Positions 22,830 to 58,969 of a DNA stretch of 64,000 nucleotides are shown here, piece after piece. Where the stretch lies: positions 33,914,001-33,978,000 of the forward strand of contig OX597829.1 of NCBI GenBank assembly GCA_951406725.2, written 5' to 3'. The stretch comes from Octopus vulgaris. Taxonomy: Eukaryota. Under the pieces are notes generated by a model, which ran no database searches, was not told the origin of the DNA, and saw only the letters and a program-made list of their open reading frames with translations. A program made the translations under genes and the position numbers. The first letter of the stretch is position 1; each line of letters opens with the position of its first letter.

Positions 22830-24447
22830 ATTAAGAAAGCTAATAATATAATAGAAACAGACATATACTATAAGCCTACAGACTCTAAGCAATATCTTCC
22901 ATTCAATTCATGCCACCCCAGACACACCAGGATGAATATCCCCTTCAATCTAGCAAAAAGGATATGCACTATAGTCTCTAACGCAAACACCAGAGACACA
23001 CGACTACAAGAACTAAAAGATACCCTTATCACCAGGAACTATCCACCTTCACTTATTGACAAGTGCCCTTCAACTTAACATCAAGGAACTGAGACATCCC
23101 AAATCAAAGAAAAACTTACAACCAAAAGCCTTACCATCTCCACACACAACCCTCTCAATAACGAAGCCTTCGGCACCATCCTCCACAACATACCCCTCCT
23201 AAAAAAAGACCACAGAATGAACACAATCCTCCAAACACACACGATCATAAAAAGCAAAAGACAGCCTAGATCCATGAAAAGTCTCCTAACACAAGCCCGA
23301 ATTCACTCTTCAACACAGAAGGCGACAGTAAAAAAATGTGGAAGACCCAATTGCGGGATATGCGACTATCTAATTGAGGGATCAGAGTTCTCCTTCAAAC
23401 AGGGACAACGGTTTACAGTGAAAAGCAACTTCACATGTGCTTCGGAGAACCTAATATACTCACTAACCTGCTCCGGGTGTCAAGAGCAGTACATAGGCCA
23501 AACAAAAAATGGTTTGCGTAAACGAATGGCCCTGCACAGATCCCAGATAAAAATTCCCCAAAACAGAAAAATAGCTTTTAGCCAACACATAGATACTTGC
23601 GCCAACAAAAAATACCAAACTTCAGGATTTTCCCCCTCTACCAATTTAGGGACGATACAACCTCGAGACAACGAATAAGTAAAGAAAATCTCTTTATTAC
23701 AAAATACAAGCCACTTCTTAATGGGTCTACGACAAACAATTAATATACCTCAACTTTAGAATAAAAGAAATATATACACACACAAATATTACACTCCATA
23801 GAATCCATTACTAATCAGCCCCATCACAGCTATACTTTCACCCATTCATATTCTCCCTTCTCTGTTTTTTTCTTCTTCTTCCTCTTCTTCTTCATCATCA
23901 TCATTATCATCATCATCGTCGTCATCATCATCACCATCATCTTCTCCTTCTCCTTCTTCTTCTTCATCATCATCATCATCATCAACATCGTCATCTTATT
24001 CTTCTTCTTCTACTTCTCCACCTTCCACCCCTTAACCTTGTCACTAATGTCTTTCAGTATAACGCCTACGCAAATTCCATAAATAATTCCTGAATCGAAC
24101 TGGGACTGCTGTCAGCCACTGACCATTCAAAATACGACCATCAAGGCATTCCCAGATTTCCCCACCCCCTCTCCACATCAGCCTCCTTATTCTTCACCTA
24201 CCCTACCAAGAACTCACAACGACCTCGAACACACAAGTGCAAACAAGGGAGTCAGAGAAAGGCAGATTACTACTTATATCTGAACACTACTATAGAAATA
24301 TTCTTTTAAAAAAACTTTTCTTCTAATTTTTCTAAATTTAATTATTTAATCGTTACAGTTGAAAAGGTCTCAAAATGACCGAAACCGGTACTGAAAGATT
24401 CACTATAAAATTATCTTAGCATTTTCTATTTTTGACTTGTTTTTTCA
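22830..24447 (+). mobile_element. Penelope-like retroelement, 5'-truncated: RT thumb, GIY-YIG endonuclease, 3' pseudo-LTR
   Basis: IETDIYYKPTDSKQYLPFNSCHP...IPFNLAKRI...LQELKDTLITRNYP (RT C-terminus); Cys-rich linker CGRPNCGIC (Neptune-like); NLIYSLTCSGCQEQYIGQT...RKRMALHR (GIY-YIG). Frameshifted and flanked by TA microsatellites. Confidence 0.92.
24356..24393 (+). ncRNA. Minimal type I hammerhead ribozyme motif, U3-A8 variant, in the Penelope 3' end
   Basis: cag-TTGAAAA-ggtc-tcaaaat-gacc-GAAA-ccgg-TA-ctg: stem I cag/ctg (extendable by aatc/gatt), stem II ggtc/gacc, palindromic stem III ACCGGT, GUA cleavage triplet. Confidence 0.75.
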
Positions 24448-24467
24448 TATATATATATATATATATA

Positions 24468-24516
<49 letters not shown>

Positions 24517-24711
24517 GCACATATGTATATATATATGCATATATGTATATATATATATGTGTGTGTGTGTATATATATGTGTGTGTGTGTATATATATAT
24601 GTGTGTGTGTGTATATATATATATGTGTGTATATATATGTATATATATATATACCGGAGTAAACACATAAATGTGAAACAAGGTGGAAAAAAGAGTACTC
24701 AAATACCAGTG

Positions 24712-25498
24712 GTACCGTTGGCCCTCTGATTGATGAAAATGGTACTCTTCAAGACAATGCCAAAACCATGGGAGAGATATTGCAGAAACAATATTGCTCT
24801 GTTTTCAGCAATCCTGATATGACTGATCTGGGCTGTATCAGTGATGTTACTCCCCAATACACTTTATCGGACATAACATTTGGCGCTCCTGATGTCTTAG
24901 CAGCAATAAAGGAAATGAAGCATAATTCAGCAGTAGGTCCCGATAGGTTCCCTGCTTGTGTCTTGAAGATGTGTCAAAACCAACTTGCACCCCCTCTAGC
25001 CAATCTGTGGCGGAACTCACTGGATGCTGGATATATACCAGAAGACCTTCTATCCCAGTCTGTTGTCCCAGTTTTCAAAAAAGGAAACAAATCGCTTGCC
25101 GTGAATTACCGTCCAATCTCACTCACCTCTCATATCATCAAGGTATTTGAGAGGGTGCTGAGATCATGTATGACTCACTTCCTTGAGAGTCATAATATGC
25201 TGAACCCCAACCAGCATGGATTCCGTTATGGGAGAGATTGCCTGACGCAGCTACTGCATCATTTTGATGACATTTTGAGAGCCTTGGGAGAAGGTTCCAA
25301 CACTGATGTCATCTACCTTGATTTCAGCAAGGCCTTTGACAGCGTTGATCATAAGATCCTTCTGAGAAAGCTGTCCAATATTGGTGTCACTGGAAAGCTG
25401 CTGCAGTGGATCAAGTGCTTCCTGTCTAACAGAACCCAACATGTTGTAGTCGAAGGAGTCAAATCCAGCCCAGCCAAAGTCAGCAGTGGTGTCCCACA
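24712..25498 (+). mobile_element. CR1/L2-group LINE RT fragment
   Basis: 257-aa ORF with [21 protein letters not shown] and YLDFSKAFD; cut off at SGVP by the RTE fragment. Confidence 0.88.
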
Positions 25499-26229
25499 TT
25501 CGGATAGTACTTTTTATGTGCCACCGGCACAGGCATCATAACTCCTATTTCCATTGATATTTATTTCGACGTTCATGTTCATGTACTTGACTCAACAGGT
25601 CTCCTCAGGCACAGCGGGACGATCTGGGATATCCGGGGTACTTTGAATGGGCAGGGGCTATGTGGAACTGATGCAGGAAGCAGCCCGGGTCTTTGCAGTC
25701 ACAGCATATCTCCAGAGATCTCGGTCCTTCGCCATTGCCTCAGTGAGGCCCAATGCTCTGAGGTCATGCTTGACTACCTCATCCCATGTCTTCCTGGGTC
25801 TACCTCTCCCCCTGATACCTTCAACTGTTTGGGAGTGGCACTTCTTCACACATCTTTCTTCATCCATCCGCAGCACATGACCATACCATCGCAAGTGTCG
25901 CCTTGCACACCACATCTGATGCTCTTATATCCAGCATTTCTCTCAGGATGCTTACACTCTGTCGTGCGTGCACACTGACACTACACATCCAGCGGATCAT
26001 GCTAGCTTCATTTCTTTCAAGTCTACGCATGTCCCCTGCAGTCACAACCCATGTTTCATTACCGTGAAGCATGGCAGTTCGCACACATGCATCATACAAT
26101 CTACCTTTCGCTCTGAGGGAGAGACCCTTTGTCGCCAGTAGGGGTAGGAGCTTTCTGAACTTTGCCCAGGCTATTCATATTCTAGTGGTGATACTCTCTG
26201 TGCATCCACCTCCGCTACTGACTTGGTCG
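25499..26229 (-). mobile_element. RTE-clade LINE 3' fragment
   Basis: [27 protein letters not shown]. Confidence 0.88.
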
Positions 26230-26361
26230 TACGTATGTATGTATTTATATGTGTATATATATATATGTATGTATATGTATGTATATATATGTATATATAT
26301 ATATATATATGTATGTATATGTATGTATATATATATATATATATATGTATGTATATATATG

Positions 26362-57660: not shown

Positions 57661-57767
57661 AAGGAAAAGTGAAAGCACATAAGAATAAATAAACTAAAAT
57701 CACATTGAATGAGAGTTAGCAGTTATGATTAAATTTTCTCCACATTAAATATTTAGTAATTTTGTTA

Positions 57768-58137
57768 TATCCGAAGAGGGTCATTATGTCAATAATAGAT
57801 ACACACACTGGTTCTGTTTCACTTTTTTTTTTATTTGTCAATCAGTTAACTATTTAACCAATTAACTTATCGATTGTTTGATTAATCATTCAGTCATTCC
57901 ATCCAATATCTAGGTTTGTTAAAGTCAATCACCTTTTGTGACCTCATCAATGATTTGCCCTCTCTATTTCAGGTCTATCTCTGACAAAACTAGCAGTTTG
58001 ATTGATTGACTGAATGATTAACCAAACAATCAATTAGTTAATTGGTTGAGTAGTTAGCCAATTGACAAATAATAATGAAGAAATGAAACAGAACCAATGT
58101 GTGTGTTCATATTTGGCATAACAACCCTGTTTCAATA
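57768..58137. mobile_element. Long-TIR MITE with probable TA TSD (Tc1/mariner-type)
   Basis: Imperfect inverted arms of about 150 bp (acacacactggttctgtttca / tgaaacagaaccaatgtgtgt; taatcattcagtca / tgactgaatgatta), flanked by TA. Confidence 0.78.
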
Positions 58138-58304
58138 TAGGAGTTCACATGAAAAATCTTGCAGACTAAATACAAAAATGTAACATCTTTTAAATATATA
58201 TAATGAAAAAACAAATGAATACTTTTTAAAAAATCACATTCACTTTAAGTAAAATCTAGAGAAACTCATATGTAACATCATAAAAATCAGTCAAAATATC
58301 TCAC

Positions 58305-58389
58305 CTATTAGTTTTTATTGTTTCAACATCTTTATACAGTCCAGTCTGGTTGAGAGTTGTTGAAAAGTGGCAATAATGACCAGCCAATC
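58305..58389 (-). CDS. SNX5/6/32-like exon, the most 5' one confidently visible
   Basis: tttgatag|GA ... AG|gtgaga; 85 nt, phase 1 to 2. Only one frame is open: (x)LAGHYCHFSTTLNQTGLYKDVETIKTN(R). Confidence 0.72.
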
Positions 58390-58412
58390 CTATCAAATAA
58401 TAATAATAATAA

Positions 58413-58969
58413 GATTGACATAACTCTTCACAAAGGTAAACAGTCAAGATGAAGAGCGTGATTTGAATGTAATAGATATTTTATTGGTTGAACAATATTT
58501 CGACAGTAAGTCTGTCTTTGTCAAGTTCAAAATAAGTAGTGATAAAAATTCAAAATTACAGAAATTTAAATTTAAAGTACAAACAAGAGCAACCAGTGTC
58601 CACACGTTGATGGAATGACATCATCAGTCTTTAAGTTTAATCCATTGGCCCAGATTTGGGCACAGCACTGGGGTCTAGAAAAACTAACAGGGCTGACAAG
58701 CCAACTGTAAGAAGGAATAAAATGCAAAAGCTATAATTTACATTACGATTTTCCTTAGATACCTGGCTGCTTTGGTAACTTCCAGAATTTCATGTTCCAA
58801 TTCTTATTCTGTGTACCATAAAATCAATCATCTCAATCTATTTGATCTTGATATTTTAAAAGGATTGACGTAACTCTTCACAAAGGTACAACAAAACAGA
58901 CTTGCTATCGAAATATCGTTCAACCAATAAAATATCTATTACAATCAAACTGTGCTCTTCATCTTGACT
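58413..58969 (-). mobile_element. Non-coding Penelope-type/retrozyme-like element: 450-bp terminally redundant unit plus an inverted partial copy
   Basis: Direct repeat GATTGAC(A/G)TAACTCTTCACAAAGGTA at 58413 and 58863. 58442-58521 recurs inverted at 58891-58969. (AAT)n on both flanks. Confidence 0.7.
58488..58530 (-). ncRNA. Minimal type I hammerhead ribozyme motif, U3-A8 variant with an extra A after A9
   Basis: Minus strand: ttgaac-TTGACAA-a-gacag-actta-ctgtc-GAAA-ta-TT-gttcaa. Perfect 6-bp stem I, 5-bp stem II, palindromic ATAT stem III, then AATAAA 2 nt later. Confidence 0.68.

Follow-up and report, generated by a model that had tools for sequence, protein, structure and literature searches.

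The window analysed here, a 64,000-bp stretch of the Octopus vulgaris genome (contig OX597829.1, positions 33,914,001 to 33,978,000), contains three minimal hammerhead ribozyme motifs that lie in remnants of three families of Penelope-like elements (PLEs), here named F1, F2 and F3. As their family state, all three have a U at core position 3 and an A at position 8 (U3-A8) in place of the C3-G8 pair of the canonical CUGANGA core. The F1–F3 motifs are type I hammerhead folds carried in the 3' terminal repeats of PLEs, and it is likely that they cleave the element's RNA at a slow rate, either as dimers or assisted by the element's own protein.

The F1 motif (24356–24393, + strand) is intact, and consists of stem I (CAG/CTG), the core TTGAAAA (24359–24365), a 4-bp stem II, GAAA, the palindromic helix III CCGG and UA, with cleavage predicted after position 24390. 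The F3 motif (58488–58530, - strand) has a 6-bp stem I and, from 58524, the core TTGACAA; an additional A precedes its 5-bp stem II, after which come GAAA, helix III TA (palindrome ATAT) and UU. The window copy thus has U17, which is C17 in 26 of 29 F3 family copies. The F2 motif (54168–54207, - strand) has weak stems and the core TCGAAAA from 54202. It mismatches the F2 consensus (TTGAAAA, 5-bp stem II, palindrome AATT) at four motif places, with U4 changed to C, two changes in stem II and a broken palindrome; the first-pass annotation also describes it as a decayed copy. That annotation had placed three motifs of the same layout at these positions, and both the letters themselves and, for the F1 and F3 motifs, a structural descriptor bear this out. 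A tiny stem III had also been described, which is correct, and had been called palindromic in two of the motifs; it is in fact self-complementary in all three family consensuses (F1 CCGG, within ACCGGT; F2 AT, within AATT; F3 TA, within ATAT).

The signature of a core N3-UGA-N-N8-A with positions 3 and 8 paired, GAAA and UH is present in the F1 and F3 window motifs and in all three consensuses, and the F2 window copy fails it at U4. Folding of intact copies gives predicted pairing of 0.74–0.94 for stem I and 0.96–1.0 for stem II; in the F2 window copy it is 0.0 for both stems, compared with 0.74 and 1.0 in an intact copy. An extra base between positions 9 and 10.1 is present in F2 and F3, and with stem II of F1 read as 4 bp there is no separate one in F1. 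The 10.1-11.1 pair is G-C in F1, and G-U instead in many F3 copies. Two further observations concern F1: its stem I possibly extends across an internal loop (AATC/GATT; 24345–24401, + strand), and its loop 2 resembles that of the HH9 hammerhead, such that F1 may be closer to the canonical type than F2 or F3. Some 100 bases upstream of the F3 motif (about 58620–58630, - strand) there is also a CTGATGA word that has no GAAA arm to match it.

Scanned with a strict descriptor in which positions 3 and 8 are open, the window yields the F1 and F3 motifs, both U3-A8, and no others; the F2 copy is missed. A relaxed descriptor adds a single match (G3-A8 at 32035) with a non-palindromic helix III, and a loose scan allowing neither the extra base nor a short helix III misses all three motifs. 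Comparison of the whole window with Rfam revealed no hammerhead family among 150 listed of 215 matches, and the microRNA families that do match are microsatellite artefacts. Searched alone, the F1 motif (146 bases) matches Hammerhead_HH9 at 22.9 bits, under the 52-bit cut-off, and the F3 motif matches no hammerhead family.

Each motif lies at the 3' end of a PLE remnant. The F1 element (22830–24445, + strand) is 5'-truncated and situated between (TA)n tracts, and includes the end of the reverse transcriptase (RT), a CxxxxCxxC linker, a frameshifted GIY-YIG endonuclease and the 3' terminal repeat with the hammerhead. The linker and endonuclease region (23079–23740, + strand) is recognized by tblastn against other F1 copies and by a match to PF01541 (E=0.0011, below the cut-off). 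The F2 element (54067–55038, - strand) is also 5'-truncated, and contains the tail of the GIY-YIG frame (about 55038–54898), a CA-rich 3' region, the hammerhead and the 3' end. The F3 remnant (58396–58893, - strand) lacks the endonuclease and is composed of a terminal-repeat tail, a stretch common to some copies, and the terminal repeat with the hammerhead; beside it, in inverted orientation, lies a truncated fragment of this terminal repeat (58891–58969, + strand), an arrangement of PLE type.

Longer F1 copies elsewhere in the genome contain a 565-residue RT-endonuclease frame (RVT_1, E=1.6e-8; GIY-YIG, E=0.0045, below the cut-off). The F2 endonuclease matches PF01541 with E=1.1e-7 at locus L348, and the coding sequence recovered for F2 and F3 comprises endonuclease and thumb-like pieces only. 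For F2, 11 of 60 loci have endonuclease remnants within 1.5 kb of the hammerhead, and for F3 the figure is 37 of 60; in the window itself such remnants occur for F1 and F2. The endonuclease regions are mutually 23–34% identical, and F1, F2 and F3 are therefore distinct PLE lineages; the first-pass proposal that several PLE families lie behind the motifs is upheld, with the motifs downstream of GIY-YIG frames in three lineages. A frame in the F3 element (L098:6071–6466 of the - strand, decayed in the window at about 58640–58700, - strand) reads SVEPNPGP followed by M, a putative resemblance to 2A ribosome-skipping motifs. The linkers read CGRPNCGIC in F1 and CKRGKPCSSC in F3, and that of F2 was read by eye from the DNA of locus L077. 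A CX2-5CxxC linker between RT and endonuclease has been described in the Neptune and Nematis clades (PMC8557442), and the octopus linker sequences point to one or other of these clades.

The PLE copies are 5'-truncated at many points, and F1 copies are flanked by (TA)n. An inverted hammerhead copy is present within 1.5 kb at 10 of 30 F1 loci, and among the first 100 F1 places listed, pairs within 5 kb number 22 inverted versus 2 same-strand (counted by eye). The truncations and inverted partners fit the PLE arrangements described in PMC8557442. Direct terminal repeats on both sides of a frame were not found for F2 or F3. Four loci considered as full-length F1 elements with two direct repeats were set aside: L341 contains two separate insertions with no frame between them, and in L091, L093 and L365 the 5' copies are inverted.

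DNA searches of the 2.8-Gb genome gave 40 scored copies per motif region, out of 761 (F1), 3,475 (F2) and 1,235 (F3) candidates. Thirty fetched F1 loci, the window's own included, are identical across 161 nt, which makes F1 a young family; similarity among copies is about 90% in F2 and in F3. Counted with 35-letter patterns with positions 3 and 8 open, there are 1,803 F1, 2,212 F2 and 105 F3 matches in the genome, and none to reversed patterns used as controls. These counts are lower bounds, because decayed copies and other subfamilies escape the patterns. Among the first 100 matches listed, 99 (F1), 90 (F2) and 92 (F3) are U3-A8, and none is C3-G8. Both the consensus sequences and the copy counts thus establish U3-A8 as the family state in three families, and it had been correctly anticipated that a canonical CUGANGA search would miss such copies, which number in the thousands in F1–F3. 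The core letters change less than the flanks in F2 (8/290 versus 175/2,076) and in F3 (7/319 versus 66/2,097), comparisons that the search seeds may bias. In F2, C at position 3 (8 of 100) outnumbers any other single change at position 3 or 8, which may point to a mutational hot spot or to a minor subfamily with C3-A8. One old copy in L212 hinted at an F2 subfamily with C3-G8; this was rejected, as only 8 of the first 100 of 121 G8 matches are C3-G8.

About a dozen hammerhead families were recognized in the genome. Their stems differ from family to family, helix III is palindromic in almost all of them, and the 3-8 pair is U-A, C-G or G-C and in none is it mismatched. In a subfamily that is sister to F1, with 16 matches of which 14 are U3-A8, the first pair of stem II is changed from G-C to A-U. 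A sister family, F5, whose protein is 67.5% identical to that of F1, is also U3-A8 but with other stems and the palindrome CATG. F5 has intact 781-residue frames in many places, with both RT and GIY-YIG matched, and a hammerhead in direct orientation is present in 2 of 9 stretches upstream of intact frames; F5, seen for instance at the loci L342 (264–2606 and 3483), L359 and L363, is a candidate active element. In a family 49% identical to F1, the core is C3-G8 and U4 is changed to C (F2 and F3 are far more distant). The C at position 4 is present in 3 of 3 copies seen of this C3-G8 PLE family (L343:2506, L347 and L156:8745). The distribution of cores among these relatives suggests that the core pair may have switched more than once. 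The C3-G8 families could be tied to endonuclease frames only for two small families and not for the large ones.

The G3-C8 family has a 7-bp stem I, a 5-bp stem II and the palindrome AATATT. A 35-letter word from it has 1,146 exact matches, and 26 of 29 copies are G3-C8. The repeat is about 200 bases long, targets (TA)n and has inverted partners; examples are at L197:3990–4140 (- strand) and L221–L280, and some ten copies lie inside one larger shared repeat. No coding frame was found as its partner, and upstream PLE fragments at two loci belong to different families. In the literature searched, which covered few subscription papers, no natural G3-C8 core is described, and only engineered variants appear in the accessible parts of PMC11167929 and PMC3884650. 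Covariation, which had been put forward as a check on the stems, is clear across families, both in the 3-8 pair and in the G-C to A-U change in the F1 sister subfamily, but no coupling of positions 3 and 8 was found within families, where F2 copies with G8 have C3 no oftener than F2 copies overall. Uncoupled changes of positions 3 and 8 inside a family are, judged from sequence, the pattern expected of dead copies in neutral decay.

The U3-A8 core in PLE minimal hammerheads, from which the first-pass annotation proposed a possibly unannotated repertoire, was already in print. Minimal hammerheads are known to sit in PLE terminal repeats, and a Cercyon variant with U3-A8 for C3-G8, with about 1,300 matches in Schistosoma mansoni, was reported in 2014 (PMC4209133); the monomers were uncut and dimers cut weakly, and in figure S3 of that paper U3-A8 occurs in 2 of 56 rows and G3-C8 in none. 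More generally, C3 and G8 pair, and they covary to U3/A8 in several natural examples that are active in vitro (PMC3088659); in the accessible text these examples are not placed in a PLE context, and a natural G3-C8 is not mentioned. F1–F3 are therefore a new host example of a described variant, and the core claim will not surprise a specialist. Lunse, Weinberg and Breaker reportedly characterized small PLE hammerhead variants with a reduced stem III that cut as dimers; going by title and a review summary these are alike, and may already include U3-A8 or G3-C8. No description of octopus hammerhead ribozymes was found in the literature searched (few subscription papers covered).

Like the PMC4209133 hammerheads, the octopus motifs combine a type I layout with a short stem I, a helix III that is tiny and palindromic, U3-A8, G10.1-C11.1 (G-U in many F3 copies) and, in F2 and F3, the extra base before stem II; they lie in the terminal repeats of RT/GIY-YIG elements, and most copies are single and truncated. 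They differ in the host, in the presence of U3-A8 in at least four families, with endonuclease identities as low as 23–34% and a G3-C8 family alongside, and in F1, which lacks the extra base and is HH9-like. The hammerhead of the Anolis Poseidon element PAc (PMC11167929) likewise lies in a PLE terminal repeat, but has C3-G8 and belongs to another PLE clade; it needs the element's protein for cleavage, which C3G and G8C each abolish and the two together partly restore. G3-C8 in PAc is thus an engineered rescue, whereas here it is a natural family. Animal retrozymes are linked to PLEs in a 2026 preprint (10.64898/2026.07.22.740005), and the non-LTR (long terminal repeat) retrozymes of PMC7229834 are protein-free tandem repeats of about 170–400 nt with a canonical hammerhead. 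We considered whether F1–F3 are retrozymes of this latter type and rejected it, as they are dispersed and continue upstream into endonuclease frames.

One genomic F1 copy (locus L355; G000:C12:48450188, - strand) has 17 differences over 98 bases, 16 of which are A-to-G. They cover positions 6–9, 14, 15.1 and 17 and wipe out the hammerhead core, and the predicted cut site lies within the copy. Read most simply, this sequence means that an edited RNA with a dead ribozyme was likely reverse-transcribed and integrated. A-to-G places over the F1 motif were also sought in putative-RNA runs, which are contigs guessed to be RNA, none on record as RNA and without matched DNA. Four such runs and one of unknown kind have 7, 1, 5, 13 and 19 places, in comparison to one each in three large runs, and 3 of the 4 putative-RNA runs have loose ends in which the core A run is read as G. 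Clusters of A-to-G changes on the ribozyme strand fall at 24250–24445 of the window in runs X1, X4, X7 and X15. The X1 loose ends, considered as fresh editing, prove none, because they equal the genomic copy L355; the edited form in X4 and X15 differs from L355 and has no match in the assembly. Lizard Penelope elements are heavily A-to-I edited, at over 40 K sites, and octopus gives one of the strongest hyper-editing signals (PMC5625713), but the accessible passages of that paper treat neither the ribozyme core nor the copying of edited RNA into DNA. No paper combining hammerheads, the editing enzyme ADAR and Penelope elements was found in the literature searched, few subscription papers being covered.

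Three other explanations of the motifs were weighed. The window is AT-rich, and a U/A-rich core arises at random more easily than CUGANGA, which raises the prospect that the motifs are chance folds; similarly, all three window motifs are U3-A8, the C3-G8 families have no recognized copy there, and at least four U3-A8 families with about 4,100 pattern matches are present, as if U3-A8 were the main hammerhead core of the genome and hidden from canonical searches. Both were examined in a genome sample of 120 stretches of 10 kb (1.2 Mb) taken from set positions along 25 large contigs, with 10 block-shuffled versions for a strict scan and 20 shuffles for a relaxed one. The strict scan gave 8 C3-G8, 2 U3-A8 (one of them a single sequence without a family found), 1 G3-C8 and no other pairs; the shuffled means were 0, 0.1 and 0 for these three classes and did not exceed 0.5 for any of the rest. 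In the relaxed scan there were 11 C3-G8, 3 U3-A8, 2 G3-C8 and one G3-A8, with at most 0.2 per class in shuffles. Real matches thus exceed the shuffled control, as the first-pass annotation had expected. Because shuffled DNA averages only 0.1 U3-A8 match per 1.2-Mb sample, and with reversed-pattern controls at 0 and the motifs at a fixed place at the 3' ends of PLE families, a chance origin is excluded for practical purposes. Counting homologous copies in the sample, decayed ones included, there are 29 of C3-G8 families, 6 of U3-A8 families (one doubtful) and 4 of the single G3-C8 family, sums that omit three single matches and, as with all of the sample, are small. U3-A8 is a minority in the sample because C3-G8 leads both in the scans and in the homology counts (8 versus 2 strict, 29 versus 6 homologous), and the idea that it forms the main hidden repertoire, a strong form of the first-pass reading, is very improbable.

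More serious, yet still unlikely, is that the fold is kept without cutting in the cell, serving as a binding or folding signal for a PLE protein or travelling as a passenger of the element. It would account for the short stem I (merely 3 bp in F1 and F2) and the U17 (the F2 cleavage position is U in 29 of 29 copies), for copies being mostly single or inverted, with the 22 inverted F1 pairs noted above, and for the integration of the hyper-edited copy with a destroyed core. It also agrees with weak or protein-dependent cutting in other PLE hammerheads (PMC11167929, PMC4209133) and with the suggestion that hammerheads may parasitise PLEs (PMC8557442). Several of these points weigh against cleaving ribozymes, as do others: F3 stems vary no less than the flanks (23/609 versus 66/2,097); F2 positions 3 and 8 change independently, C3 having the same share (8 of the first 100) among G8 copies as among all copies; three long F1 copies lack a second hammerhead in direct orientation and have inverted ones; and for PAc, the accessible text of PMC11167929 reports no reads ending at the cut site and insertion in vitro that does not need cutting. 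What speaks for cutting is that the 3-8 Watson-Crick pair, important to the catalytic fold, is kept in three versions across about a dozen families with no mismatched one, and that cleavage in vitro is on record for other hammerheads of PLEs (PMC4209133, PMC11167929). The reading that we favour, slow type I ribozymes acting as dimers or with the element's protein, would have the 3-8 pair kept by selection for the active fold on few source elements, as scattered copies decay. Judging from what has been published for other PLEs, two copies would together form the palindromic helix III, and the cut would trim the element RNA from a longer transcript. Most genomic copies, being single or inverted, would not cut in cis, and inverted pairs may give rise to double-stranded RNA that is edited by ADAR.

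These observations can be tentatively joined. It is possible, and no stronger than that, that the 3-8 pair has switched more than once (at least four families have U-A, one has G-C and the others C-G, with no mismatch), that the A-rich core is a target of ADAR when inverted copies are transcribed, and that such RNAs, their ribozyme dead, nevertheless end up as DNA copies. If so, the genome would be a natural experiment on the hammerhead core: selection would act on the ribozyme in source elements although integration in vivo would not require it, and through editing the host would have a switch on the ribozyme. The young F1, F5 with its intact frames and 5' repeat, the natural U-A, C-G and G-C cores and the edited integrated copy provide material on the need for cutting. 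Positions 3 and 8 should be left unspecified when animal genomes are searched for hammerheads, because CUGANGA misses thousands of copies here.

The remainder of the window includes the 3' exons of a CBP/p300-like gene (706–3076, + strand), with ZZ, TAZ and Creb-binding domains. RT fragments of long interspersed nuclear elements are located at 13153–14130, 19229–21939, 24663–28308 and 32455–33772, and one pair of these fragments is interrupted by long TA-rich microsatellites.

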